Below, one piece after another: positions 3,770-23,916 of a DNA stretch of 24,000 nucleotides. The notes under the pieces were generated by a model, which searched no databases, had not been told where the DNA came from, and saw only the letters and a list, made by a program, of their open reading frames with translations. The position numbers and the translations under genes were made by a program. The stretch is from Pseudanabaena cinerea FACHB-1277. GTDB lineage: Bacteria > Cyanobacteriota > Cyanobacteriia > Pseudanabaenales > Pseudanabaenaceae. The stretch spans positions 87,517 to 111,516 of the forward strand of contig NZ_JACJPY010000004.1 of assembly GCF_014696345.1 (NCBI RefSeq), given 5' to 3'. Within the stretch, counting starts at the first letter, position 1; each line of letters begins with the position of its first letter.

Positions 3770-4480
3770 TTATTTTTGATTCATGGCGGTGCGATCGCAT
3801 AACCAAATGGTGTTACCTGTGATCAACCGCGATGGATATTGATTGACATCACCCTTGGGCGCAAGCACGGCATGGAGAGCCTTGGCCTTGGCAGCCCCCT
3901 CGACCATAAATAAAATTTCCTGTGCTTGATTGATCAATGGCACGGTCATGGTGATGCGGGGCTGTCCATCCTTACTGCCTACAGTAATTAGGCGATCGCT
4001 TACCTTTAGCGCGGCAGTATGGGGAAATAGCGAAGCCGTATGTCCATCATCACCCATGCCCAGCAAAATCAAATCAAACTGCGGGAATACCCCTGCTGCT
4101 ACTGCAAAAAATTCTTGAATATGCTGCTCATACTCTTCGGCGGCGATCGCAGGATCATCGGCATCGGTGGGAATGCCATGAATATTTGCCGCAGGGATAT
4201 CCACATGATCGAGCCAAGCTTTGCGGGTCATGCCTTCATTGCTCTGCGGGTCGGTCACAGGCACATAGCGCTCATCACCCCAAAATATATGCACCTTCGA
4301 CCAGTCCCAATTTTTAGTGGCAAACAATTCGTATAACACCTTGGGTGTGCTGCCCCCTGCGGCAACGATTGTAAACCTGCCTGACTTAGCGATCGCCTGC
4401 TCATAGGCAATTTGCGTCAATAACAGCGCTCTCGCCGCAATTTCTGAGCGATCGTTCCAAATTTCTACCTGTCTAGCCAT
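3770..4480 (-). CDS. pgl: 6-phosphogluconolactonase
   Basis: 236-aa ORF with motifs AAGGSTPK and LLGMGDDGHTASLFP, typical of the Pgl/NagB superfamily. Confidence 0.9.
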   Translation of the reverse strand: MARQVEIWNDRSEIAARALLLTQIAYEQAIAKSGRFTIVAAGGSTPKVLYELFATKNWDWSKVHIFWGDERYVPVTDPQSNEGMTRKAWLDHVDIPAANIHGIPTDADDPAIAAEEYEQHIQEFFAVAAGVFPQFDLILLGMGDDGHTASLFPHTAALKVSDRLITVGSKDGQPRITMTVPLINQAQEILFMVEGAAKAKALHAVLAPKGDVNQYPSRLITGNTIWLCDRTAMNQK

Positions 4481-6379: not shown

Positions 6380-6381
6380 GT

Positions 6382-6457
6382 GCGATCGCCGATCCTGTAG
6401 GGTGCGTTACATTTCATTAACGCACCTCATCTGATATTCAAAATTCACGCTTTACTA
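6382..6457 (+). repeat. REP/REPIN-like element family 1, copy 0 (right half degenerate, hairpin loop flipped)
   Basis: GCGATCGCCGATCCTGTAGGGTGCGTTA-CATTTCAT-TAACGCACCTCATCTGATATTCAAAAT matches copy A (10112-10206), except that the 8-nt loop is the reverse complement. Similarity decays after ~6445. Confidence 0.75.
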
Positions 6458-6480
6458 AGATTATTTAGGATTTCTAAAGT

Positions 6481-6877
6481 TTAGGCAACAGTTAAGACTG
6501 TCGGTAAGTTGCGAGGACGCTTTGCCCTCACTGCATCAAGATTAAGCTCTAGCTCTAATACCTCTTGATACAAAAACAAAATCGCGCTCAAAGCCTGATT
6601 TTGTGTTGATGCCGCCACATTTTCATCGATTGCTAAAAGTTAAAAAAGCATTAACTTCATCGCCGCCCATTTCGCTAGGATGGCGCTTGTTATGAAATAA
6701 AATAAATCGCCGAACCCATTGCACATAGGACTTTTCAGTTTGATAGGAGTAATGCTTAACTCGAATAGCATCCCTAACGCGATCAAGTAATTTGCGAGGC
6801 GGTGGCTCAGTCTGCCCATTTGGGGTAAATACAGATATCTGATTTTTTAGTATAGGCTTGGGTATGTTACTCAACAT
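6481..6877 (-). pseudogene. intI: integron-type tyrosine recombinase (IntI) remnant: N-terminal third only, with a frameshift
   Basis: The ORF at 6623-6877 encodes YSYQTEKSYVQWVRRFILFHNKRHP. After a frameshift near the T-run at ~6635-6640, the next frame reads [27 protein letters not shown]...[13 protein letters not shown] and stops at 6481. The catalytic C-terminal two-thirds is absent. Confidence 0.75.
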
Positions 6878-7117
6878 TTTGCACGATAAAACTCCATAGA
6901 GGGATATTACCCCGCAAAAAACTGAATATTACACTTTTTAATTGCTTTATCTAGCAAGTTGTGAGATATTAGGGTCATACAAGTATATATCCTGTAATTT
7001 ACAAGATAATATGTAGTTATACGGCATTAAATCCCCTATCTGAAATTCTCTTTTTCCAAAAGGCAGCAATGTAAATCTAAATGTGTAAAATTATTGACAG
7101 TTCTCTGAGGAAAAAGG

Positions 7118-9217
7118 ATGGAAATTAGTCAACTCAAGACTCTACTGGCAGATTCAGAGAACCCCAAATTAGAATTTAAGAGTCAATGGTATTGCAATAC
7201 AGATCAGCTTGACGATAAGGGCTGGGGAGAGTTTCTAAAGGATTTAATTACACTTGCAAATGGAAATTCAGGTTTTGTAGGTCAAACTGGATATTTAATA
7301 ATCGGTGCATCTGATGAAGATCCCAGAATTGGACAGCAACGGGGAATCTCTAATGTAGCTAGAAATGGAATGTTGTCTAATCTGCAAAAGCTACGTGAAA
7401 CAACACTTCGGAAACTTCGTGAAACTTGTAGCCCATCTCCTGCTGACATCGATCTGAGTTTTGTCGAAGTAGAAGGTAAGCATCTGCTTATTATTGAAGT
7501 TCCGCCTCCAGTTGATGCTGTCAAACTCGATCGTGATTTAAACACCAGAGGAATGAGATTTAAAAAGGGCACTGTTCTAATTCGTGTTGGGCAAGACGTT
7601 AGTGTGGCTGATCCAGCAGAGATAAATAACTTAAGAAAAGGGTATCAGGATACTTGGATTCAAACTCAACGAATGGTGCATAATTTACCACAACCCGATT
7701 ATGTAAACTTTATTGGTAGACAAGATGAGCTTGAGAAGCTTCGGAATTTGCTTAATCCCAGAGATCGTATATGGACAATTGTTATTGATGGAATAGGTGG
7801 GATCGGTAAATCTGCTTTAGCTTTGGAAATAGCACATCGATACTTAAACGAATACAATTTTATTCCTGAAGAAGAGCGATTTCAGTCAATTATTTGGATT
7901 TCAGCAAAAGATTCAATTTTAACTGCTGACGGGATCAAAAAGCGTTTTCAGGTAACCAACACCCTTAATGACATTTATAGTCAGATTTCTGTGGTTTTAG
8001 GAGAACAAGAAATTAGCCGCCATAACTTTAAGGAACAAGGTTTTTTAATCAATCGTGCATTGGGGGCAAGAAGAACTCTTCTAATCATTGATAATCTTGA
8101 GACAGTTGATGATGATCGCGTTAATGCTTTTGTTCGAGAACTTCCTAATCCCACAAAATGTATTGTTACTACCCGTCATCGTATTGATGTAGCAGATCCT
8201 ATTCGACTGTCTGCAATGCCTCGAAAAGATGCACTCTCACTAATTCAGCAAGAATGCGACAAGAAAAATGTTCGATTAGATAATTCGCAAATTGAGCTTC
8301 TGTATAAAAGGACGGCAGGAGTTCCCTTAGCTGTAGTTTGGAGTATTGCTCAAATAAGTTATCACGGCTTTGGAGTAGATCAGGTATTAAAACGCTTGGG
8401 TGATGCAAAAGGCGATATAGCCCGTTTCTGCTTTGAAAACGCTGTTCATCACATTCAAGATAAACCTGCTTATAAAATATTAGCTAGTCTGGCTTTATCT
8501 CCAAGATCGATGAGCCGACAAGAAGTAGGAACTGTTGCTGATTTGTCCGAGCTTGATCAAGATGAGGGGTTAGTGATCCTAGAACGCTTATCGCTAATTA
8601 ATAAGAAAGGTGGTCAATTTAGTTTATTACCTCTAGTTCAAGAGTATATCTTAACTAAGGTTAAAGAATTCCCTTTTACTGATTTGAGGCAATTGGTTAT
8701 TCGGTTCTCAGAAAACTATGCTCCTTCAGGTGCAGACTCGCTATCTGCAATTGAGCAATATTTTGGTTCAGAATTGATTACTCCATTAAAGATTGAAGTT
8801 GCAAAGAAGATTGTTGATCAAATGTGGGAATGGGATAGTCAGTGCGATGAAATAGGCGTGAGTTATTGTATTTCAGCTTTGGAGAAGTTGGCAATTGATA
8901 CGGCAATTGATGCCATAAGAGATATTGCGATGTATTCAAATGTTGCATCTCTGGCTGCGTGGATGTACTCCGCTGCTGCTGGCATATTGATTCATGCTGG
9001 CAGGTTAAGAGATTTAATAAATTTGAGCCTTTCCTATCAAAATTTTGATAGCCTTACTGTTGAATCCTTGAAGAAATTTGAGACTGACAAAGTTGTTCAA
9101 GAAATTGACATAGTGTTGGAGATTCAAAAAGAAAATAAATCAGAAATACTACAGCAGTTAAAAGATAAGTTATTGTCTTCAGAAATATATCCATCTTCTG
9201 GCGACCATGCCGTATAA
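7118..9217 (+). CDS. Schlafen/AlbA_2-like N-terminal domain fused to an NB-ARC-type STAND P-loop NTPase
   Basis: 699-aa ORF. The N-terminus ENPKLEFKSQWY...LANGNSG...GYLIIGASDED resembles the AlbA_2/Schlafen core. Also present are Walker A GIGGIGKSALA (nt ~7787-7813), Walker B LLIIDNLE, CIVTTRHR, GVPLAV (GLPL-like) and a winged-helix-like LSLINKKGGQFSLLPLVQEYI. The ~170-aa helical C-terminus is unassigned. Confidence 0.7.
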   Translation: MEISQLKTLLADSENPKLEFKSQWYCNTDQLDDKGWGEFLKDLITLANGNSGFVGQTGYLIIGASDEDPRIGQQRGISNVARNGMLSNLQKLRETTLRKLRETCSPSPADIDLSFVEVEGKHLLIIEVPPPVDAVKLDRDLNTRGMRFKKGTVLIRVGQDVSVADPAEINNLRKGYQDTWIQTQRMVHNLPQPDYVNFIGRQDELEKLRNLLNPRDRIWTIVIDGIGGIGKSALALEIAHRYLNEYNFIPEEERFQSIIWISAKDSILTADGIKKRFQVTNTLNDIYSQISVVLGEQEISRHNFKEQGFLINRALGARRTLLIIDNLETVDDDRVNAFVRELPNPTKCIVTTRHRIDVADPIRLSAMPRKDALSLIQQECDKKNVRLDNSQIELLYKRTAGVPLAVVWSIAQISYHGFGVDQVLKRLGDAKGDIARFCFENAVHHIQDKPAYKILASLALSPRSMSRQEVGTVADLSELDQDEGLVILERLSLINKKGGQFSLLPLVQEYILTKVKEFPFTDLRQLVIRFSENYAPSGADSLSAIEQYFGSELITPLKIEVAKKIVDQMWEWDSQCDEIGVSYCISALEKLAIDTAIDAIRDIAMYSNVASLAAWMYSAAAGILIHAGRLRDLINLSLSYQNFDSLTVESLKKFETDKVVQEIDIVLEIQKENKSEILQQLKDKLLSSEIYPSSGDHAV

Positions 9218-9331
9218 CAATCCCGTTGCACGCCGACCGTATCAATTTAGTCGGTCAAATCCGAAAGGTTACTAGCGGCGGGTGAACGGAGCCGTTAGGC
9301 TACAAGTCTAGGTAACGGAGCAAAAAAACTG

Positions 9332-9763
9332 ATGCCCAATGATATTGTGAAGTATGAGCCAGATGACGCTGGAAATATTGTGACTCATGCTCTACGACAA
9401 ATTTCTGAAAACTCAGAAATAGTTTTATCTGTCAAGGCAGTTAGCAATTGGATTACTGGTTTTACTTGCTACCTTAGCAACGAGGCTGGATTGTATCGAT
9501 CTCAAGAAGTCGATTTCAAAGAAACATTCAAAGATTTTAATCAGTATATTCGCCTATTCAATGCAGGATCTGATTTTCGTGCAAGATCTACCGCAAATTT
9601 TTGTAGACGAGTTCTTCATATGGAAGATTCAAAAACTAAACGCCATTTCATTATCCAGATTGTTAGCAGTTTTCGCCGCGATATGGGTAACTCAATAGAA
9701 AGATTTTCAGAGATTGAAGGACAAATTGTTAATGGATTTCTTGAAAACCCATTTGGGCGTTAA
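9332..9763 (+). CDS. hypothetical protein (143 aa)
   Basis: Clean ORF on the same strand as, and 114 nt downstream of, the STAND gene. The region is AT-rich and lacks HIP1. No recognisable motif. Confidence 0.45.
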   Translation: MPNDIVKYEPDDAGNIVTHALRQISENSEIVLSVKAVSNWITGFTCYLSNEAGLYRSQEVDFKETFKDFNQYIRLFNAGSDFRARSTANFCRRVLHMEDSKTKRHFIIQIVSSFRRDMGNSIERFSEIEGQIVNGFLENPFGR

Positions 9764-9795
9764 AATAAAGTTAATGTTTAAAATTTACTGCTGCT

Positions 9796-10149
9796 ATGCT
9801 CACTGCCTCTCGTACCGTGTCAGTTCCCTTATCTACTAATGCCGATGGTGTGATTTTGGTTGGCAACACTCGTGTAACCATTGATACAGTTGTAGGAAAT
9901 TACAAGCAAGGATTGTCACCTGAAGAAATTGTATCTCGCTACTCATCACTTAATCTATCAGATGTTTATAGCACTATTGCTTTTTATCTAAGCTATCAAC
10001 TAGAGGTTGAAGAATACCTAAAACAACGTCAGCGCATAGCTAAAGGAATTCGAGAAGAGAATCAACTACGGTTTAATTCTCAAGATTTGCGCGATCGCCT
10101 TCTTGCAAGTACGATCGCCGATCTTGTAGGGTGCGTTAATGAAATGTAA
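9796..10149 (+). CDS. DUF433-domain protein (antitoxin-like HTH)
   Basis: 117-aa ORF. GNTRVTIDTVVGNYKQGLSPEEIVSRYSSLNLSDVYSTIAFY fits the DUF433 pattern. The last ~11 codons and the stop lie inside REP copy A. Confidence 0.6.
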   Translation: MLTASRTVSVPLSTNADGVILVGNTRVTIDTVVGNYKQGLSPEEIVSRYSSLNLSDVYSTIAFYLSYQLEVEEYLKQRQRIAKGIREENQLRFNSQDLRDRLLASTIADLVGCVNEM

Positions 10150-10206
10150 CGCACCTCATCTGATATTCAAAATGCGTGCGTTACGCTGACGCTAACACAC
10201 CCTACA
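10112..10206 (+). repeat. REP/REPIN-like element family 1, copy A (full)
   Basis: Flank CGATCGCCGATCTT plus an 80-bp core (10126-10205): GTAGGGTGCGTTA-ATGAAATG-TAACGCACC-spacer-GTGCGTTA-CGCTGACGC-TAACACACCCTAC. Confidence 0.85.
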
Positions 10207-10227
10207 ACATTTCTATATTTCCGATGA

Positions 10228-10779
10228 TTAATCATCCCAAGAGCCTTGAGGTTTGGCTATACGTTCACCACTACCCCAATCCTTGGGATAGACACCTTGA
10301 GTAATGAACCGATGAATACTCGAATATTGCCAATCTTGAGGATTCTCACATAAACCATGCCTCACTGGATTATCATGAATATAATCGCAGTGAATCGCAA
10401 AATCTTTCTCATCACGAATTAAATGTTCCCAAAATCGGCGTTGCCAAAGATTGCTTTCCCCACGCTTCTCTCTTGACTGGGAAATATCACGATTTACTTC
10501 TAATAGCTTTCCATAATGTTTTGTGACGTAAGTTTTGATTAATCTTAATCGTACTGATAAATCACGATCATCAGGCGGTAAAGTCCACAAACAATGGAAA
10601 TGATCGGGCAATAGAACAAAAGCATCAATAGTCAAAGGATACTTCACCCTCACCTTTTCAATCGATTCCCTAAGTGCTTTACGAGCCACATCACAACATA
10701 ACCAAGGTTCACGCTGATAAGTAACCTGAGTAATGAAAAAAGTACCTCCCAATACATGAGATCTTCGATAGTTAGACAT
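10228..10779 (-). CDS. REP-associated tyrosine transposase (RAYT, IS200/IS605-like Y1 HUH transposase)
   Basis: HUH motif in LLPDHFHCLW and a catalytic-Tyr motif in CDYIHDNPVRHGL. It is flanked on both sides by full REP copies A and B. The start is set at MSNYRR (10779), because the longer ORF to 10851 reads through REP B. Confidence 0.8.
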   Translation of the reverse strand: MSNYRRSHVLGGTFFITQVTYQREPWLCCDVARKALRESIEKVRVKYPLTIDAFVLLPDHFHCLWTLPPDDRDLSVRLRLIKTYVTKHYGKLLEVNRDISQSREKRGESNLWQRRFWEHLIRDEKDFAIHCDYIHDNPVRHGLCENPQDWQYSSIHRFITQGVYPKDWGSGERIAKPQGSWDD

Positions 10780-10812
10780 TTGCGTCTGAAGATAACTGAC
10801 ATAGTTAATATA

Positions 10813-10903
10813 CGCCGATCTTGTAGGGTGCGTTAATGAAATGTAACGCACCTCATCTAATGGTCAAAATTCGTGCGTTACGCTGACGCTAACACACCCT
10901 ACA
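10813..10903 (+). repeat. REP/REPIN-like element family 1, copy B (full)
   Basis: The core at 10823-10902 is nearly identical to copy A. Confidence 0.85.
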
Positions 10904-10983
10904 TTTGTTGTACCTTAAACGGGATAAGTTCTTAAGGCTACTTATTGGAACTGAATCACAGCAAAATTTGATACAATAGCTAC

Positions 10984-11256
10984 ATGAAATTTGAGTGGGA
11001 TAAGAACAAAGCGGATCGTAACTTTTCAAAGCACGGAGTTTCCTTCGATGAGGCAAAAACCGTCTTCGATGATCCCCTTTATGTTGACTTTTACGATTCA
11101 CGCCACTCGGACAAAGAAGATCGATTCCTTATTGTTGGTGAATCTAGTCAAGGACGTTTGCTGATTGTTTCGTATACTGAGAGAAGAAACTCAATTCGCA
11201 TTATTAGTACAAGAGAAGTCACAAGATCGGAGCGTGAAGCATATGAAGAAGGTTGA
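10984..11256 (+). CDS. brnT: BrnT-family (DUF497) toxin
   Basis: 90-aa ORF. MKFEWDKNKADRNFSKHGVSFDEAKTVFDDP is the BrnT/DUF497 signature. Confidence 0.8.
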   Translation: MKFEWDKNKADRNFSKHGVSFDEAKTVFDDPLYVDFYDSRHSDKEDRFLIVGESSQGRLLIVSYTERRNSIRIISTREVTRSEREAYEEG

Positions 11257-11506
11257 GTTAGAGATGGAAGACGATCTTCTAGATGAATATGATCTAAAAA
11301 AATTGCGCGTGAGAAGGCTAGGCTCAGGGCGAAAGAGTTTTGGCACTGCAATGGTACGTCTAGATCCTGATGTAGCAGAAATATTTTCTAGTGCAGATGC
11401 AGTTAATGAAGCCCTAAGATTTTTGATCAAAGTGACGCGGCAAAATCAGCCACCCATCCTCACAACGCAGCCTAACACAGCGTTGGAACCGACTACCGAA
11501 AGTTAG
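11243..11506 (+). CDS. brnA: BrnA-family antitoxin
   Basis: It overlaps the brnT stop by 14 nt. The LDPDVAEIF...VNEALRFLI motif is typical of BrnA (ex-DUF4415). The start chosen is the internal ATG at 11243. Confidence 0.65.
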   Translation: MKKVELEMEDDLLDEYDLKKLRVRRLGSGRKSFGTAMVRLDPDVAEIFSSADAVNEALRFLIKVTRQNQPPILTTQPNTALEPTTES

Positions 11507-11516
11507 TCTAAAAAAT

Positions 11517-11612
11517 GCGATCGCCGATCTTATAGGGTGCGTTAATGAAATGTAACGCGCCTTATCTAATGGTCAAAATGCGTGCGTTACGCTGACGCTA
11601 ACACACCCTACA
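11517..11612 (+). repeat. REP/REPIN-like element family 1, copy C (full; GTAG changed to ATAG)
   Basis: The core at 11532-11611 is aligned by eye to copies A, B and D. Confidence 0.85.
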
Positions 11613-11667
11613 TTTCCTAGTCGGCTATAATACTGGACAAGGCAATGATCTAGGAAAACTTATAATC

Positions 11668-11943
11668 ATGGCAGTGCGTCAACCCCGCTATAGCAAAGAA
11701 GAATTTGCCCAACGTGGCGATCTAATTTATCAAACGCAGATACGTCCACAGGTCGAATCAGGTAATCACGGCAAAATAGTTGCTATTGATATTGAGACTG
11801 GAGATTTTGAGATAGCCAATGATACAATGACCGCCACTCGCCGCCTTCGAGAACGTTTGCCCGACTCCCAAACTTGGGTAATCCGAATCGGCTATCGTGC
11901 AGTTCATCGTTTCGGTGCGCGGAGCCTGAAAGAAAAGATATGA
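11668..11943 (+). CDS. small conserved partner protein of a retropepsin-like protease
   Basis: 91-aa ORF whose stop overlaps the next start (ATGA at 11940-11943). No family name could be confirmed. Confidence 0.5.
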   Translation: MAVRQPRYSKEEFAQRGDLIYQTQIRPQVESGNHGKIVAIDIETGDFEIANDTMTATRRLRERLPDSQTWVIRIGYRAVHRFGARSLKEKI

Positions 11944-12326
11944 TGCAAGGATACGTCAATAAGAATTGTGAAGCCACGATTCTTGTAGTCGTTCGTAACA
12001 ATGCCAAACTAAAATCTATTAACACTGTCATTGATACAGGATTTACTGGTTTCCTAAGCCTCCCGAACAACATCATTACTGAACTGGGTTTGCCATGGAG
12101 TTATCGCGATCGCGGAACATTAGGAGACGGTAGTGAGGTTTTGTTTGATATCTATGACGCAGTAGCTATTTGGGATGGCAAAGCTAAAGAGATTGAAGTA
12201 AATTCAGCAGAAACAGATCCATTGATTGGGATGAGTATGCTCCGTGGGTATCGACTGCAAGTAGATACAATTGAGGGCGGATTGGTAATAATTACAGACT
12301 TGTCAGAGCGATCGCCGATCTTGTAG
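11940..12326 (+). CDS. retropepsin-like (clan AA) aspartic protease
   Basis: VIDTGFTGFLSLP contains the D-T-G catalytic triplet in the usual hydrophobic context. Start taken at MMQGYV (11940). The stop codon TAG lies inside REP copy D (cttgTAGggtg). Confidence 0.6.
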   Translation: MMQGYVNKNCEATILVVVRNNAKLKSINTVIDTGFTGFLSLPNNIITELGLPWSYRDRGTLGDGSEVLFDIYDAVAIWDGKAKEIEVNSAETDPLIGMSMLRGYRLQVDTIEGGLVIITDLSERSPIL

Positions 12327-12403
12327 GGTGCGTTAATGAAATGTAACGCACCTTATCTAATGTTCAAGATTCGTGCGTTACGCTGACGCTAACACACCCT
12401 ACA
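12308..12403 (+). repeat. REP/REPIN-like element family 1, copy D (full)
   Basis: Core at 12323-12402. Confidence 0.85.
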
Positions 12404-12423
12404 ACTATAACTAAGATTAAGCC

Positions 12424-12687
12424 ATGTTAGCTACAGAACCTTCTACAAAGATAAATGTTAAACAGACATTGATTCAAGAAATCGATCAGACTTCAGAGGC
12501 TCTTTTAAGCGAAGTTCTAGACTTCCTTTTGTTTATTAGAGCTAAACATACAGATGTTGTTGAATTAGTAGAAGATTATGATGATTCCAAGGAGAAAATC
12601 TTAGAAGATCTGAGGCATTCCTTAGAAGATGCTAAAGCAGGTAGAGTTCACGATATTTCTGAACTTTGGGATGGGATTGATGTCTAG
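12424..12687 (+). CDS. putative antitoxin (87 aa)
   Basis: Acidic small ORF whose stop overlaps the downstream toxin start (ATG 12680, TAG 12685-12687). Confidence 0.5.
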   Translation: MLATEPSTKINVKQTLIQEIDQTSEALLSEVLDFLLFIRAKHTDVVELVEDYDDSKEKILEDLRHSLEDAKAGRVHDISELWDGIDV

Positions 12688-13021
12688 CGATAATCATAAA
12701 TTGAAGATTCAGTTTACAGATGTTTTTAAGCGTCAAGTTCGAGGTTTGGCAAAGCGCTATAAAAGGATTAAATTAGATATTCAACCAGTTTTAGATCAAC
12801 TTCAGAGTGGTGACTTAGTTGGCGATCAGATCCAAGGTACTGGCTTTACAGTATTTAAGGTTCGCATCAAAAATAGCGATATTCAGAAGGGTAAAAGCGG
12901 GGGCTATAGGTTGATTTACTATATTAAAACCTCTGAGAATATTTTATGTGTTTTTTGTCAAAGCACCGAATTTTATTCAGAAAAGTCAGGTGCGTTATAT
13001 TGTATTAACGCACCCTACTGA
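12680..13021 (+). CDS. RelE/ParE-HigB-like toxin, C-terminus replaced by a REP half-element
   Basis: KGKSGGYRLIYYIKTSENI is a RelE/Gp49-type signature. From ~12969 onward the reading frame runs through REP copy E and stops at the TGA following CCCTAC. Confidence 0.6.
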   Translation: MSSDNHKLKIQFTDVFKRQVRGLAKRYKRIKLDIQPVLDQLQSGDLVGDQIQGTGFTVFKVRIKNSDIQKGKSGGYRLIYYIKTSENILCVFCQSTEFYSEKSGALYCINAPY

Positions 13022-13033
13022 ATTGGCGATCGC
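12969..13033 (-). repeat. REP family 1, copy E (half element, inverted, variant loop)
   Basis: AATTTTATTCAGAAAAGTCAGGTGCGTTA-TATTGTAT-TAACGCACCCTAC...GGCGATCGC shares its spacer with copy G. Confidence 0.7.
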
Positions 13034-13040
13034 ACTATAA

Positions 13041-13424
13041 TCATTCAGCAGTAATGTTATTAGACTTTTGAAGGTCAATCAGGTCAGCTACAGAAGCGCT
13101 GATCACAGATATCTTTCTGACTGGATTAATGCGAGCATTTAGCCATTTTTGAAATGACTTTTGACTCTCTCCCGAAGGTTGACCTAAAATCAAATTTTTA
13201 GTGCTGATATCTTCATCTAGTTGCTCCCAGTGAATTCCTTCACCTTGACTAATAGTACGCCAGTCATTACGTTCTTCTTGGGAAGCATTAAGCAGTCTTG
13301 GATACCATGCCAGTGGAACAGAAATTGTCCGTCCATCTGATAGATCGACTGATAAAGTATCGTCTGTGATGGTTACGTCTTGAATTGTTGGTATTTCAAG
13401 GAGTTCAATCGTTAAAGAAGTCAT
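13041..13424 (-). CDS. DUF2442-domain protein
   Basis: 127-aa ORF. LSVDLSDGRTISVPLAWYPRL...GIHWEQLDEDIS fits DUF2442. It overlaps the upstream DUF4160 gene by 20 nt. Confidence 0.7.
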   Translation of the reverse strand: MTSLTIELLEIPTIQDVTITDDTLSVDLSDGRTISVPLAWYPRLLNASQEERNDWRTISQGEGIHWEQLDEDISTKNLILGQPSGESQKSFQKWLNARINPVRKISVISASVADLIDLQKSNNITAE

Positions 13425-13641
13425 TCCATCCTGCCAGCAGTTGCTCTTGATGTTCTTGAATTAGTTTTTGAATATGATTAATTTCTGTGCGGCTAAATCC
13501 TTTGTTTTTCTGTAGGCGGATTGGGGTAAGCCAAAATTTAGCTTGGTCTTGATCTCGCTCAATATGTATGTGCGGTGGTTCATCGCGATCGCCTGCATAG
13601 CAGAAAAAGCGGTAAGCACCGACTCTTAATAATGTTGGCAT
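13405..13641 (-). CDS. DUF4160-domain protein
   Basis: 78-aa ORF. YRFFCYAGDRDEPPHIHIERD fits the DUF4160 signature. Confidence 0.7.
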   Translation of the reverse strand: MPTLLRVGAYRFFCYAGDRDEPPHIHIERDQDQAKFWLTPIRLQKNKGFSRTEINHIQKLIQEHQEQLLAGWNDFFND

Positions 13642-13760
13642 TTGAGGATATAGGTTTATAGCTAAACATTAGCTGATATCAATTTGACCGTCAATATCTA
13701 GTCACCCTATCATCAATAAGTTTACCATGCGCCAAAACAACTAGTTATCGTCAACTATTG

Positions 13761-13808
13761 GGTACATTCTATTTCATTAATACACCGTACATGATTGGCG
13801 AAGGTCGC
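13761..13808 (-). repeat. REP family 1, degenerate half copy
   Basis: GGTACATTCTATTTCATTAATACACCGTACATGATTGGCGAAGGTCGC aligns to the hairpin-plus-flank of the family with about 10 substitutions. Confidence 0.45.
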
Positions 13809-13822
13809 ACAGATTTTATCTA

Positions 13823-13916
13823 GTAGCGTGAGTTAGCAGAGCGTAACGCACAAGTAATTAGCATTAAATAAGGTGCGTTACATTTCATTAACGCACCCTA
13901 CAAGATCGGCGATCGC
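13823..13916 (-). repeat. REP/REPIN-like element family 1, copy F (full length, inverted, distal half diverged)
   Basis: It ends with GGTGCGTTACATTTCATTAACGCACCCTACAAGATCGGCGATCGC. The proximal part GTAGCGTGAGTTAGCAGAGCGTAACGCAC is a diverged second hairpin. Confidence 0.75.
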
Positions 13917-13940
13917 ATTTATAGTTAGTTAGATTCTTTT

Positions 13941-14189
13941 TTAAAGTCGATTATTAACATTTAAAATAGTCAGACCAATAATTTCATCATTTTGATAGCG
14001 GATTAAAATATTTTCATCGGTGAGTTCACTATCATCGGCAGCAAGGGCGGGTTGATGAAAATTGATGTATAACACATCAGCTTCGACATCATAAAATGTC
14101 CAAGTATTCTTCTTGGGTAGAGTTTTAATTGCATTAGCTAAGTTAAGATAGCTAGGAATTTTGAGGGGAGTTAAAGGGGTTGTGACCAT
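13941..14189 (-). CDS. DUF2283-domain protein (antitoxin-like)
   Basis: 82-aa ORF. FYDVEADVLYINF...ILIRYQNDEIIGLTILN fits DUF2283. Confidence 0.6.
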   Translation of the reverse strand: MVTTPLTPLKIPSYLNLANAIKTLPKKNTWTFYDVEADVLYINFHQPALAADDSELTDENILIRYQNDEIIGLTILNVNNRL

Positions 14190-14482
14190 ACTTCTTTACG
14201 TTTGTTGAGAGAATTGATACGTTTAGTAATATAGGCGGTGATGACAAACCCGTCTTCTTGTGCTTCTTTATAAATTGTAACCAAATGCTTATTATCACTT
14301 AGCAACTTGATCGCTAAAAGCTCACCATCATTGCCTTCTAAAATTCTATCAGGATTTTCTATGGTTTGGATGATTTCGGGCTGAAGGTGCAGAAGTTCGG
14401 GATGCCCTTCGGTTATGTGTTGCCATCTTTCTTCAGTTAGGCGAATGGTTAGTCCGCTTTTGGCGGATGCGATCAAGGGCAT
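14171..14482 (-). CDS. small toxin-like partner protein (103 aa), family not recognised
   Basis: It overlaps the downstream DUF2283 gene by 19 nt. This is a two-gene architecture like the neighbouring TA pairs. Confidence 0.45.
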   Translation of the reverse strand: MPLIASAKSGLTIRLTEERWQHITEGHPELLHLQPEIIQTIENPDRILEGNDGELLAIKLLSDNKHLVTIYKEAQEDGFVITAYITKRINSLNKRKEVWSQPL

Positions 14483-14570
14483 AGGGGTTGTCGAGTAAGA
14501 GGGTTGCTAAGTTATCAATCTAAATCTAAATTGCCCCCTCATCATCAAATTTACTATTCGGTAACTCATT

Positions 14571-14632
14571 CAATTTTATTCAGAAAAATAAGGTGCGTTA
14601 CATTTCATTAACGCACCCTACAAGATCGGCGG
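14571..14632 (-). repeat. REP family 1, copy G (half element, inverted)
   Basis: AATTTTATTCAGAAAAATAAGGTGCGTTACATTTCATTAACGCACCCTACAAGATCGGCGG. It abuts the stop codon of the 14633-15031 gene. Confidence 0.75.
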
Positions 14633-16393: not shown

Positions 16394-16400
16394 AATTTAA

Positions 16401-17201: not shown

Positions 17202-17227
17202 GTTTGTGGATTTATGGCTTTGTAAGT

Positions 17228-17740
17228 ATGGATGTTAAAGAATTGTTGAAATTTGTTGATGAGAGTATGTTTGCGAAGACGGGGAAAAGACTTAATGATT
17301 TGCAGCGTCAGGTGATTGAGGGAGCGCTGAATCATCGGAAATATGTGGATATTGCGGAATCTTTTGAGAAAAGCGAAGGTCATGTTAAAGATACTGGTTA
17401 TGAGCTTCTACAAATACTTTCAGAGATTTTTGAAGAACCAGTTAAGAAAGGGAACCTTAAATCTGTTTTAGAGAGACAGAGAAGTAATGTAACTGTTAAT
17501 GTTGGGGATGGGAATGTCGGAAACTTTGGACATATCAATAATTGCGTGAATTTTAATAGCGATCGCCTATCACCTAAACCCAATCAAGTTCCATTAGAAA
17601 AAACTGACACTCTGCAAGAAAAGCAAATAGCGAAAATCAATAAACTGCGCGATCGCGGTTTAAATGATGAAGAAATTGCCGAACTTTTAGAGATTCCTTT
17701 AGAGTCAATTACAGCTATAAATTTAGAAGAATCGGCTTAG
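17228..17740 (+). CDS. stand-alone HTH protein resembling the N-terminal module of cyanobacterial STAND/NACHT-WD40 conflict-system proteins
   Basis: LNDLQRQVIEGALNHRKYVDIAESFEKSEGHVKDTGYELLQILSEIF is a sigma70-region-4/LuxR-like HTH. A second HTH-like KINKLRDRGLNDEEIAELLEI lies at the C-terminus. Start taken at MDVKELL (17228). Confidence 0.5.
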   Translation: MDVKELLKFVDESMFAKTGKRLNDLQRQVIEGALNHRKYVDIAESFEKSEGHVKDTGYELLQILSEIFEEPVKKGNLKSVLERQRSNVTVNVGDGNVGNFGHINNCVNFNSDRLSPKPNQVPLEKTDTLQEKQIAKINKLRDRGLNDEEIAELLEIPLESITAINLEESA

Positions 17741-17765
17741 TTCTTAAACCAATTAGCATCATGCG

Positions 17766-18197
17766 TTACACATTGCGCGATCGCCTAGGAAATATATCAA
17801 AAGCCAACTGCGAACGGTAAAAGCACACATCAAACTCAATAAAAAAGTTTAGCTGACCTAAAATAAGTGGTGGATCGTTAGATTTAGCCCAAGCAAAAGC
17901 CAAAATAACTGGTGGAAAGTCATCAATTTGCGCTATCACAGCTAACCCCTTTGCTTCCACTGGCGCAAGATTACCTGATAGGGGAATTGAGAGAGCTTTT
18001 GATCTTCCCAGACAGCCCCTAATTCTAAGCCAAGAGCATAGGGCATAACATTTAGGCTCGCTCCCGTATCTAAATAATCCAAAAACTTCCAAAGTGCGAT
18101 CGCCATAACTCAAAGCAATAGGCACGCAAGGAAAGACATTCGTTTCACCCTTTGAATTTCTTCGCTCAATAAAAGGAAATCGCTTAGGAATTGACAT
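17766..18197 (-). CDS. hypothetical protein, possibly a degenerate retropepsin-like fold
   Basis: 143-aa ORF overlapping the upstream small ORF by 14 nt. Its size and partner architecture mirror 11668-12326, but the expected D-(T/S)-G position reads R-Y-G. Confidence 0.4.
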   Translation of the reverse strand: MSIPKRFPFIERRNSKGETNVFPCVPIALSYGDRTLEVFGLFRYGSEPKCYALCSWLRIRGCLGRSKALSIPLSGNLAPVEAKGLAVIAQIDDFPPVILAFAWAKSNDPPLILGQLNFFIEFDVCFYRSQLAFDIFPRRSRNV

Positions 18198-18465: not shown

Positions 18466-18592
18466 CAATTAGCATTAAGTGCTACACCTTTCGTGATCGC
18501 CTATCACCCAAACCCAATCAAGTTCCATTAGAAAAGCCAGATTCTCAAAGAGAGAAACAAATAGCTAAAGTTAAGAAATTTCGCGATCGCGG
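18466..18592 (+). pseudogene. gene remnants: copy of the 17750-17785 segment fused at a HIP1-like site to a copy of 17559-17658
   Basis: 18493-18592 translates DRLSPKPNQVPLEKPDSQREKQIAKVKKFRDRGL, compared with DRLSPKPNQVPLEKTDTLQEKQIAKINKLRDRGL in the intact gene. There is no in-frame ATG after the upstream stop at 18450-18452. Confidence 0.6.
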
Positions 18593-18631
18593 CTTACAAC
18601 GCTTTGCGCTCAAACCCAAACCAAAAGAAAT

Positions 18632-18663
18632 TTTGAAAAGGTTGCAAAGCAACGCTTTCAAAA
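18632..18663 (-). terminator. hairpin TTTTGAAAAGGTTGC-AAA-GCAACGCTTTCAAAA, candidate intrinsic terminator of the aminotransferase gene
   Basis: On the minus strand the hairpin is followed by TTTCTTTTGGTTTGGGTTTG. It lies ~85 nt 3' of the stop at 18748 and belongs to the same family as 2000-2030. Confidence 0.45.
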
Positions 18664-20018: not shown

Positions 20019-20195
20019 TTAGAGTCTATTTGAAAAGTTTTGATCCCCCTCAATCCCCCTTGCAAAGGGAGACTTTGAAATCTTTCCCCCCTTTCGTAAG
20101 TCGCCCTGTACACACAAGTTATTTGCTATTGCAAACGTAGCTAGAGAGACTTGTGTGTAACACCGTAGCTTTCGTAAGGGAGGCTAGGGGGGATC
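20019..20195. repeat. MITE-like element, copy 2, carrying a nested 68-bp insertion
   Basis: Same ends and internal hairpins as 2116-2220. The extra segment 20101-20168 is flanked by a duplicated CTTTCGTAAG (20091-20100 and 20169-20178). Confidence 0.65.
20101..20168. mobile_element. 68-bp nested miniature insertion with 11-bp perfect inverted repeats
   Basis: TACACACAAGT (20109-20119) and ACTTGTGTGTA (20149-20159). A 10-bp direct duplication of the host-element sequence lies on both sides. Confidence 0.55.
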
Positions 20196-20199
20196 AGTG

Positions 20200-22341: not shown

Positions 22342-23916
22342 ATGTCAGTTGATATTTCCTTAGAAACCCTCTGGAACCAAGTCCTTGAGCTACTAGAAAG
22401 TCAGCTTAGCCGTCCAACCTACGAAGGTTGGATCAAGACGGTGGTGGCGGTCAATTTGACCGAAGATCGTTTGACGATCCGCACGCCTTCAGGTTTTGCC
22501 AAAAATTGGCTACATAAGTACTATTTCCAAAATATTACCGATGCTGTCACCGAAATCCTTGGCTATGCCGTAGAAATTCAGATTGAGGCAGCCGCCGCCC
22601 AAATTGAGCTAAATCTTGATTTTGATGGCGCTGTGGCTGCGGGCGATCGCCCATCGGCTAATCGCCTCAAAGAATCTAACGCGGAAATGTCTCCGAAAAC
22701 GCCCCTAACAATACCTCAGCATGGCGAAAGCGATCAAAAGAATGGCTCCCGTAATGGTGCGGGCATGGGTCAGGATGGGATGCTAGAAACAGCGATCGCT
22801 GCTGAAGCCGTGCAAGCAATGGTGGCGGCGATCCCCCAAAATGGTCAAGGCAATAGCACAGAGAGTCATAGCCATGCTCCCCGTACTAGCAACCTCAATC
22901 CCAAGTATAATTTCAACCGCTTTGTGGTTGGCTCCACCAATCGCATGGCGCACGCGGCCGCGTTGGCGGTGTCCGAAGCGCCTGGGCGTGAGTTTAATCC
23001 TTTGTTTTTGTGCGGTGGTGTTGGCTTAGGCAAAACGCATTTAATGCAGGCGATCGCCCATTATCGCCTAGAAATTGAACCCAAGGCGCGGATTGCCTAT
23101 GTATCAACAGAGCAGTTTACCAATGACCTGATCGCCGCCATTCGCAAGGATAGTATGCAGCGCTTTCGGGAGCAGTACCGCGAGATCGATATGCTCATTG
23201 TGGATGATATTCAGTTCATTGAGGGTAAGGAATATACCCAAGAGGAATTTTTCCATACTTTTAATACGCTCTATGAGGCGGGTAAACAAATCGTCTTGGC
23301 AAGCGATCGCCCCCCTGCCCAGATTCCTAGATTGCAGGAACGGCTATGTTCAAGGTTTTCGATGGGTTTGATCGCCGATATTCAAGTGCCAGACCTGGAA
23401 ACGCGCTTGGCGATTTTGCAAAAGAAAGCTGAATACGATCATCTCAAAATTCCTACCGATGTGCTGCATTACATCGCTGCTAGTTATACCTCTAATATCC
23501 GTGAGCTAGAGGGGGCATTGGTGCGAACTGTTGCCTATATCTCGATTTCGGGCTTGCCGATGACGGTGGAAAACGTTGCGCCCGTTCTTAACCCGCCAAA
23601 GGAGCCTGTAGAAGTTTCCGCCGAGATGGTTTTGCGAGTAGTTACAGAAGTTTTAAATATCGATCTAGCGGATCTATTGGGCAATTCACGGCGGCGGGAA
23701 ATTAGCCAAGCTCGCCAATATGTGATGTACCTCATGCGTCAGCATACGAATTTGAGTCTGCCCAAAATTGGCGAAGCCGTAGGCGGTAAGGATCACACCA
23801 CCGTCATGTATAGCTGCGAAAAGGTGGCACAGTTGCAGTCCACCGATGGCGACATTGCTCAATTATTAAGGCAACTCAGCGATCGCATTTATCTAGTTGC
23901 CCAAACCAAAACTTAG
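22342..23916 (+). CDS. dnaA: chromosomal replication initiator protein DnaA
   Basis: 524-aa ORF with AAA+ Walker [11 protein letters not shown], Walker B LIVDDIQF and domain [17 protein letters not shown]. Domain II is a long low-complexity linker (aa ~85-185). Confidence 0.95.

Follow-up and report, generated by a model that had tools for sequence, protein, structure and literature searches.

REPINs, which are paired repetitive extragenic palindromic (REP) sequences, and REP-associated tyrosine transposases (RAYTs) are viewed as vertically inherited, scattered residents, and integrons as self-contained cassette stores; both rely on hairpins in single-stranded DNA (ssDNA). Here we describe a stretch of 24,000 nt from Pseudanabaena cinerea FACHB-1277 (contig NZ_JACJPY010000004.1; this whole stretch is called the window below), in which a piece at 6380–14632 carries nine copies of one GTAG-tagged palindromic element, a RAYT gene, and the remains of an integron. 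We consider the locus to be, in all probability, a REPtron (a RAYT gene flanked by REPINs) nested in a genuine, decaying integron, that is, two separate recombination systems that each use single-strand hairpins. GTAG-tagged REPs are already known in cyanobacteria (PMC3733652), and RAYT Group 4 is common in this phylum (PMC5581495). In Marinomonas, REPs cluster around tnpA-REP and cleavage occurs at CT (PMC8266576).

The repeat element and its RAYT gene

The nine copies, five on the plus and four on the minus strand, had been listed with their coordinates and orientations in a preliminary description of this DNA, and all were located by matching the sequence. The unit consists, in order, of (AGT)GCGATCGCCGATCTT, GTAG, GGTGCGTTA, ATGAAATG, TAACGCACC, a 20-nt spacer, GTGCGTTA, CGCTGACGC, TAACACACC and CTAC. 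Four full units lie on the plus strand: copy 2 (10107–10206), whose left end is a rearrangement junction, copy 3 (10813–10903), which has the short flank CGCCGATCTT, copy 4 (11515–11612), which has ATAG instead of GTAG, and copy 5 (12305–12403). A further full unit is on the minus strand (copy 8, 13823–13920), with a degenerate second hairpin. Copy 1 (6380–6460, plus strand) retains the first hairpin only; its flank, AGTGCGATCGCCGATCC, precedes a hairpin whose loop (CATTTCAT) is flipped, and of the second hairpin, beyond the spacer, only the 5' arm is left. On the minus strand, copy 6 (12969–13036) consists of the first hairpin, the flank and a T-rich tail, copy 7 (13761–13808) is a degenerate half copy, and copy 9 (14571–14632) consists of the first hairpin, a short flank and a T-rich tail, with its outer edge at a strain breakpoint and recurrent contig end.

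The 13-nt arm GTAGGGTGCGTTA, allowing up to three mismatches, matched the window 27 times compared with 3.4 ± 1.8 times in shuffles, none of which reached 27. The 80-nt cores of the four plus-strand full units were 93–96% identical, almost all differences falling in the 20-nt spacer; hairpin arms are conserved and spacers divergent. Six of the nine copies have GTAG 5' of the first hairpin; the exceptions are copies 4 (ATAG) and 7 (GTAC) and copy 1, in which CTAG precedes the hairpin with the flipped loop. A CT dinucleotide lies just 5' of GTAG, in GATCTTGTAG. The two REPs within a unit are unlike each other both in the loop and in the stem (GGTGCGTTA vs GGTGTGTTA). Folded as ssDNA, the unit gave −20 to −23 kcal/mol (z −4.2 to −5.8). 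Both of the forms proposed earlier were found: in the minimum-energy fold the outer 13-nt arms pair and enclose the central hairpin, and the alternative is two side-by-side hairpins. The highly iterated palindrome (HIP1) octamer that the preliminary description assigned to the flank is absent from the copies at 10813 and 14632, whose flanks are CGCCGATCTT alone. No Rfam family reached its gathering score in the window, and a literature search with the repeat sequence returned unrelated primer matches only.

Two further features of individual copies were observed. The 8-nt loop of copy 1 (6397–6426, CATTTCAT) is inverted relative to the copy's own plus-strand flank and spacer. The orthologous copy in L121, one of the metagenome contigs of close relatives that were found via exact window proteins and used as strain variants, is a full unit (4180–4288) with the loop in the usual orientation (4199–4232, ATGGAATG); the loop of copy 1 thus appears, from the sequence, to have flipped inside a perfectly palindromic stem. 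The 20-nt left flank AGTGCGATCGCCGATCTTGT occurs in two to three tandem copies ahead of the REP in other loci (L140, 2358–2420; L092, 4000–4040 and 2520–2716; L131, reverse complement, 1400–1730), and half copies of the repeat likewise stand in tandem there, three or four at a time. Such tandem flanks and half copies could have arisen through repeated rounds of cleavage and rejoining or through slippage during replication.

An open reading frame (ORF) at 10228–10779 on the minus strand, bracketed by the full units 10107–10206 and 10813–10903, encodes a protein of 183 aa. It matched the NCBIfam model NF047646 (REP-associated tyrosine transposase) with 185 bits (cut-off 80), Pfam Y1_Tnp, and the structure of Escherichia coli TnpA-REP (4ER8; E 3.1e-36), with the HUH motif (HFH, residue 60) and the catalytic Tyr motif (YIHDNP, residue 133) aligned. 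The ORF is an intact RAYT gene. Both the RAYT-type Y1 HUH transposase and the two full copies around it are therefore as the preliminary description gave them, and the lack of any HUH/Y1 profile match, which it had named as counter-evidence, did not occur. Classification as an IS200/IS605 transposase was rejected, since the IS200 model gave 18.4 bits, far under its cut-off of 55. A RAYT gene flanked by the repeats was also found in four other loci (L079, L089, L093, and L077).

The pattern GGTGCGTTA-N8-TAACGCACC, scanned in one genome per species, was present in at least 120 stretches; dozens of cyanobacterial genera were represented. Among the matches listed, nearly all were cyanobacterial (Nostocales, Oscillatoriales, Microcystis, Pseudanabaena, Coleofasciculus, Okeania, and others), several genomes had three to five separate contigs with the pattern, and GTAG or CTAC adjoined 112 of 130 hairpins in other genomes. 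Two sites in Tolypothrix tenuis (AP018248) are 300 kb apart. RAYT homologues with 62–81% aa identity are located directly beside such hairpins in Argonema, Dolichospermum, Kastovskya, and Floridaenema. Three copies in Microcystis novacekii lie between a tetratricopeptide repeat gene and small membrane-protein genes, and no integron features were seen in this 8-kb repeat locus. The repeat unit of our organism shares 96–99% identity with that of Microcystis. Across cyanobacteria the hairpins form a dispersed family associated with RAYT genes; dispersal over at least 120 stretches, the GTAG tag and the adjoining RAYTs together are the behavior of a REP/RAYT family. The REPIN/RAYT reading put forward in the preliminary description is thus supported by the profile and structure matches, the tag, the repeats flanking the RAYT gene, and the spread of the hairpin over many genomes and contigs.

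The few non-cyanobacterial matches (L046 and L097, Desulfococcaceae; L068, Geobacteraceae; L091, Thiotrichales) have the same stem, inverted dimers, and outer GTAG/CTAC, which points either to an old family or to inter-phylum transfer. A second GTAG-tagged REP family (GTAGGTTGGGTT ... AACCCAAC) was observed in L092 (4050–4085), L061, and L074, in L092 also within an integron array.

Each of the nine copies has its flank and first hairpin directed toward the 3' end of the adjacent, co-oriented gene, and copy 1 follows the housekeeping gene asnS. The minus-strand half copies at 14588–14621 and 12988–13015 share a T-rich spacer (TTATTTTTCTGAATAAAATT), carry a terminator-like call, and stand directly 3' of minus-strand genes. 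These positions raise the question of whether the copies are kept mainly as terminators, or as mRNA-stabilizing 3' hairpins that insulate toxin–antitoxin modules. Such a role would be compatible with a REPtron in an integron and would explain the orientation bias; it agrees with the location of every copy just 3' of a co-oriented gene, the T-rich tails and terminator-like call of the two half copies, the conserved arms next to divergent spacers, and a promoter-like TATAAT read from the sequence after copy 4. However, terminator-like sites were not enriched (seven found vs 5.7 expected in shuffles), the full units lack a T tract, and conservation of the arms is equally expected from recognition by the RAYT. 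We regard this role as doubtful.

Integron remnants and attC sites

The integrase gene remnant (intI) lies at 6481–6877 on the minus strand. It encodes approximately 130 N-terminal residues, is frameshifted (6623–6877 plus 6481–6639), and breaks off at the edge of copy 1. Pfam Phage_int_SAM_4 matched it with 3.9e-18, and its best family match, in agreement with the preliminary description, was the integron integrase TIGR02249 (E 5.3e-37, model positions 1–103 of 315, 128 bits vs a cut-off of 265). The remnant has neither the catalytic half nor the IntI-specific region, and the window contains no intact integrase. Between its 5' end and the first cassette (6878–7117) is a region that, from its position, is putatively the attI/promoter region; it contains GTAGTTATACGG, which resembles the GTTATAC/GTTAGAT core beside intI in L092, a Microcystaceae locus. 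The first gene downstream of the remnant, at 7118–9217 on the plus strand, encodes a 699-aa STAND NTPase (signal transduction ATPase with numerous domains; SLFN_AlbA_2 + NB-ARC), for which PADLOC gave no match. Its stop codon is overlapped by a canonical attC (9212–9300, plus strand) with R'' GTATAAC, an L-box stem with bulged bases, and R' GTTAGGC.

To score attCs of this lineage, we built a covariance model, R1, from eight attCs of related loci, the window site 9212–9300 being one of the eight. In the training alignment, pairing of the R and L boxes held in 93% of cells, and nine of the 18 pairs changed on both sides. With filters off, 9212–9300 was the sole significant match in the window (72.4 bits, E 2e-20), and a weak trace was found at 11470–11508. 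This second site, which overlaps the end of the gene after brnT, is an attC 5' half (GCCTAACACAGCGTTGGAACCGAC...) cut off by copy 4; read by eye it is close to the 5' half of the L121 attC (GTCTAACACTGCGTTGGAGCCGACC), with R1 giving 8.7 bits, which is not significant. Its junction with copy 4 also occurs in L140. R1 also scored sites outside the training set that lie beside the repeat, with 70 bits in Argonema (L079), 68 bits in Pseudanabaena (L105), and 55 and 46 bits in Microcystis (L120 and L029, respectively).

Related integrons with a full-length integrase were retrieved via the repeat pattern. L092 and L029 (Microcystis aeruginosa) both encode an IntI that is 49% identical to IntI1, that of L092 scoring 470 bits against the cut-off of 265. 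Their arrays have textbook attCs with GTCTAAC, a bulged stem, a variable center and then GCCGTTAGAC. A strict hand-written attC scanner, for which both boxes and complementary arms were mandatory, recovered no site until it was loosened, and then the L092 and L029 sites only; it missed the window attC because R'' has one mismatch.

The nine repeats themselves are not attCs. A true array with homogeneous attCs, as the VCRs of Vibrio proved to be, might be expected from their setting: their arrangement with the neighboring intI remnant is the canonical divergent one, each module of one or two genes has a repeat that points the same way as its genes, and TAAC/GTTA at the base of the central hairpin is faintly like the R''/R' boxes. 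However, none of the nine scored with R1 at E up to 10 with filters off. The true attCs of this integron lineage, in the window and in five related loci, look different, with RYYYAAC/GTTRRRY boxes, a bulged L stem and a length of 85–89 nt, whereas the repeat stems are perfect without extrahelical bases, and the best attC-box candidates in them each have a mismatch and span ~43 nt only. In addition, the same hairpin is dispersed in non-integron contexts (e.g., L038), one repeat follows asnS, and cassettes are exchanged between strains at the canonical R' and not at a repeat (see below). An attC identity of the repeats is thus very unlikely indeed, and the result that the preliminary description had set against its own reading, a repeat absent elsewhere in the genome and scoring as attC, was not obtained. 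Its view that the locus mimics a cassette array is incomplete: the locus is a real, decayed integron, with the attC at 9212–9300, the half attC at 11470–11508, and cassette exchange at R'; the true attCs had been missed.

The remaining modules between intI and copy 9 are small. Cassette 2 (9332–10109, plus strand) encodes a 143-aa protein and a DUF433 protein, the 3' end of the latter and a DUF5615 partner gene having been lost at the copy 2 junction. It is followed, beyond the RAYT gene, by a module at 10984–11506 (plus strand) comprising a BrnT toxin gene (10984–11256; BrnT_toxin 9.4e-29) and a partner gene ending at 11506, which had no family match and is presumed to encode BrnA. Next on the plus strand are a two-gene module for a 91-aa protein and a clan AA aspartic protease (11668–12326; TIGR03698 6.8e-18) and a toxin–antitoxin-like module (12424–13021) with weak DUF2281 and ParE/RelE matches, the toxin ORF of which runs into copy 6. 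The 91-aa gene has a homologue in the L092 integron array, and an exact-protein look-up of the aspartic protease (11940–12326) returned no record. On the minus strand are a DUF2442/DUF4160 module (13041–13641) and a DUF2283/PBECR2 nuclease module (13941–14482).

These modules belong to an island of variable genes at ~6.4–18.7 kb, downstream of asnS. Its right arm holds a PIN module and DUF697, a 143-aa protein gene at 17766–18197 (minus strand) that matches the PADLOC candidate defense family PDC-M52B (E 8.8e-40), and an HTH_VMAP-M9 gene (17204–17740), of which the 3' part and following sequence are duplicated ~930 nt downstream as a gene fragment (17548–17662 vs 18490–18596; 17750–17787 vs 18466–18503). 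At the right end of the window, dnaA (22342–23916) follows pdxA, a dehydrogenase gene and an aminotransferase gene, so that the island lies ~4–16 kb from dnaA and possibly near the replication origin. Direct repeats rich in CCCCC/GGGGG (1971–2220 vs 18603–18662 and 20030–20196; 70–89% identical) occur on both sides of asnS and the island and are unrelated to the REP element. A near-perfect, bulge-free 19-bp hairpin at 2343–2392 has attC-box-like ends (GTCTAAC ... GTTAATT) and no attC model score, and is probably a terminator.

Two observations concern the other integron loci. A repeated ATACGGAAA...TTTCCGTAT motif module lies between intI and the first cassette and recurs within the arrays ahead of other cassettes (L092, 1396–1510 and 5175–5244; L029, 6800–6900, 4600–4700, and 2670–2780); it could be an attI-like or a promoter/operator module copied into the array. 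In contig L127 (reverse complement, 700–950), degenerate attC-like pieces (CAGAATTTTTCTG[TC]ATAACAC...) between a gene that is COG2509-like by its translation and the first small gene look like the worn-down start of another integrase-less attC cluster.

Strain variants and the origin of the array

Contig L121 shares asnS with the window and continues into the full repeat unit, after which a DUF2281/PIN module replaces the intI remnant and the STAND cassette. The window leaves L121 at ~6445, within the second hairpin of copy 1 and exactly at the start of the truncated intI. At the attC, the two sequences are different upstream of R' and contain the same cassette from TACAAGTCTAGG on, with the switch at GTTAGGC/GTTATGC, which is the signature of integron cassette exchange. 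Cassette 2 is intact in L121, comprising the 143-aa gene, DUF433 and DUF5615, and is followed by an attC, ~85 nt, and a REPIN. At 10105–10109 the window changes from one variant to another, being equal to L122 up to 10109 and to L127 from 10105; in L127 the REPIN starts 0 nt after the R' of an attC (GCCGTTAGCC directly followed by AGTACGATCGCC), and that attC gave 66 bits. In L140 an HSP70-like gene occupies the position of the RAYT gene, and this contig joins the window at 10813, the start of copy 3, after three tandem 20-nt flanks. L131 leaves the window at 14631, the outer edge of copy 9, where four tandem repeat copies are present, and several metagenome contigs end at copy 9 (14602–14632). 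A further breakpoint, at 16399, is not at a repeat. The order in Argonema is attC, ~140 nt, REPIN, RAYT, and REP, with a spacer partly homologous to that of L121. Rearrangements between strains thus break at repeat edges and at the attC R'.

Two simple histories were rejected. An insertion at 10109 does not fit, as no other part of the window contains the DUF5615 and attC sequence that was displaced. One inversion between two repeat copies does not account for the four minus-strand copies, as any undoing of it leaves a convergent point in the array.

As repeats break assemblies here and several contigs end at 14602–14632, the dense array itself could be suspected to be an assembly artefact of chimeric joins or collapsed repeats, all the more because the window joins an L122-like left part to an L127-like right part and these are contigs of one sample. 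This is scarcely credible: independent contigs from at least five samples reproduced long stretches of the window at 99.4–100% identity, one contig spans five consecutive repeat copies (10105–13619), and the two sides of 10105–10109 share an AG dinucleotide only, so that a k-mer overlap could not have created the join.

The same breakpoints bear on a more active role, in which REPINs and RAYT would shuffle cassettes independently of attC, with modules between co-oriented REPINs excised as single-stranded circles and integrated again, as IS200/IS605 elements are, and REPINs functionally replacing attCs. Several strain breakpoints are indeed at repeat edges, repeat-free DNA is joined to an exact REPIN left end at 10105–10109, the 20-nt flank and half copies of the repeat are found in tandem, and all nine orientations are tied to gene direction. 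The conserved ~20-nt 5' extension is also about as long as the left-end linker of IS608 from cleavage site to hairpin, a comparison drawn partly from PMC8266576. Nevertheless, no module with ends set by REPINs turned up at two unrelated loci, and the absence from the rest of the window of the sequence lost at 10109 indicates deletion or replacement rather than insertion. Furthermore, the second REP of each unit is inverted, an orientation that E. coli TnpA-REP fails to process on the same strand (PMC8266576), whereas homologous recombination between ~100-nt repeats that are 90–99% identical explains most variants. We judge attC-independent shuffling to be decidedly improbable.

The association of the repeats with integrons was compared among the loci. 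Among the 120 pattern-selected loci listed, 4 of the 24 with the flank-bearing repeat subfamily had an attC, compared with 1 of the 96 without it (Fisher p 0.006), but three of the five attC-bearing loci were Microcystis-type and are thus not independent. The flank-bearing subfamily occurs with an attC or IntI in Microcystis, Argonema, and Pseudanabaena. A metagenome scan anchored on IntI yielded 80 loci, mostly with non-cyanobacterial IntI of ~60% identity and without REP hairpins. Hairpins were found only in L141, which is the same contig as L029, and L147, both Microcystis-type, which leaves one new locus; L147 carries four repeat arms along with part of an intI and an attC. The combination of REPtron and integron recurs in at least three genera, each component being of a known kind.

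In the explanation we favor, a sedentary chromosomal integron lies downstream of asnS in a HIP1-rich cyanobacterium, now decayed to a truncated intI, an attI-side gap, a STAND cassette with its attC, and small toxin–antitoxin-type cassettes. A REPtron resides in this array, its RAYT gene flanked by REPINs of two inverted GTAG-tagged hairpins with a 20-nt spacer and a ~20-nt 5' extension with HIP1. By analogy with TnpA-REP of E. coli, Stenotrophomonas, and Marinomonas, the RAYT would bind the folded REP strand via GTAG and the stem and cleave at the nearby CT. Repeat copies may have multiplied locally around the RAYT gene, as in Marinomonas; if only intergenic copies survived, the very short modules would have led to one repeat in almost every gap. 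The ~100-nt repeats, at 90–99% identity, could then have supplied homology for deletions and replacements, and later deletions or recombination, often starting from repeat copies, would have removed most attCs and half of intI, leaving REPINs where attCs had been.

Several points weigh against this account. In the window, the nine copies are confined to the island, and no transposition footprint or target duplication was found. To our knowledge, movement of a REPIN by its RAYT in vivo has never been demonstrated. The high R1 score of 9212–9300 is expected of a training site. Neutral local spread and purging alone do not account for the uniform gene-relative orientation of the nine copies, nor does the account explain the tandem flank repeats, and the junction at 10105–10109, where repeat-free coding DNA meets the exact REPIN left end, is not expected from homologous recombination between repeat copies. 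Because of the orientation, this junction and the tandem flanks, RAYT-driven rearrangement of modules is kept as a possibility of low probability. In its widest form, REPINs and RAYT would be a second recombination system in cyanobacterial integrons that takes over boundaries from attCs and mobilizes or exchanges modules, and cassettes would conversely carry REPtrons between genera; we consider this improbable.

Comparison with known systems

The integron part of the locus resembles sedentary chromosomal integrons and attC clusters without an integron-integrase (CALINs) in the intI divergent from the array, the R and L boxes and bulges of the attCs, the toxin–antitoxin and defense-type cassettes, exchange at R', and the decay of intI. 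It differs in having one full and one half attC, an intI stump of 130 residues, and a REPIN at most module boundaries. Small mobile elements are also found in arrays next to or within attC, at a defined attC position, as with the IS1111-attC group, group IIC-attC introns, and integron-flanking miniature inverted-repeat transposable elements (MITEs). In the window and its relatives, however, the distance between REPIN and attC varies (0, ~23, ~55, or 85–140 nt, or with the 3' half replaced), and the associated enzyme is a RAYT, not an IS110-family transposase or intron-encoded protein; no site-specific targeting of attC by the REPINs was seen. With IS200/IS605 elements (IS608), the locus shares the Y1 HUH enzyme, subterminal hairpins whose foot has a guide tetranucleotide on its 5' side, and a similar left-end linker length. 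By contrast, its flanks are REPIN dimers and not left and right ends, and the gene-less copies have no counterpart among insertion sequences.

Among cyanobacterial repeats, the GTAG families of Di Nocera et al. 2013 (GTAG-12, -15, and -16; PMC3733652) are short GTAG-tagged stem-loops in Anabaena, Nostoc, and Cyanothece that often form dimers and have large loops; the arm GTAGGGTGCGTTA may belong to one of them. The closest counterpart of the repeats and their gene is the REPIN–RAYT system or REPtron, as represented by E. coli TnpA-REP, Pseudomonas REPINs, and the Marinomonas REPtrons Ma and Mb. The features in common are an HUH/Y1 RAYT flanked by REPs, a palindromic stem with GTAG immediately on its 5' side, long hairpins formed by inverted REP pairs, concentration of copies near the RAYT gene as in Marinomonas (PMC8266576), and a CT just 5' of GTAG, where the known enzymes cleave. 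The window differs in the ~20-nt 5' extension with the HIP1 octamer, in the unlike loops and stems of the two REPs of a unit (GGTGCGTTA vs GGTGTGTTA), and in the location of the REPtron inside an integron array.

On present evidence these remain two known systems side by side, in a combination for which we found no prior description; in the limited library searched, no literature linked REPINs or RAYTs to integron arrays. A REPtron directly after attC R', REPINs in place of attC halves, and breakpoints at REPIN edges in several genera suggest that the REPtron and the integron interact or at least share a niche. In such arrays, most module boundaries would escape programs for which attC alone defines a cassette. 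The arrangement is also a concrete case for possible horizontal spread of REPtrons and for the decay of integron arrays. The near-identity of the repeat unit to that of Microcystis is unusual for elements regarded as vertically inherited, and if REPtrons are carried between genera by cassettes, such supposedly vertical elements would have a horizontal route.

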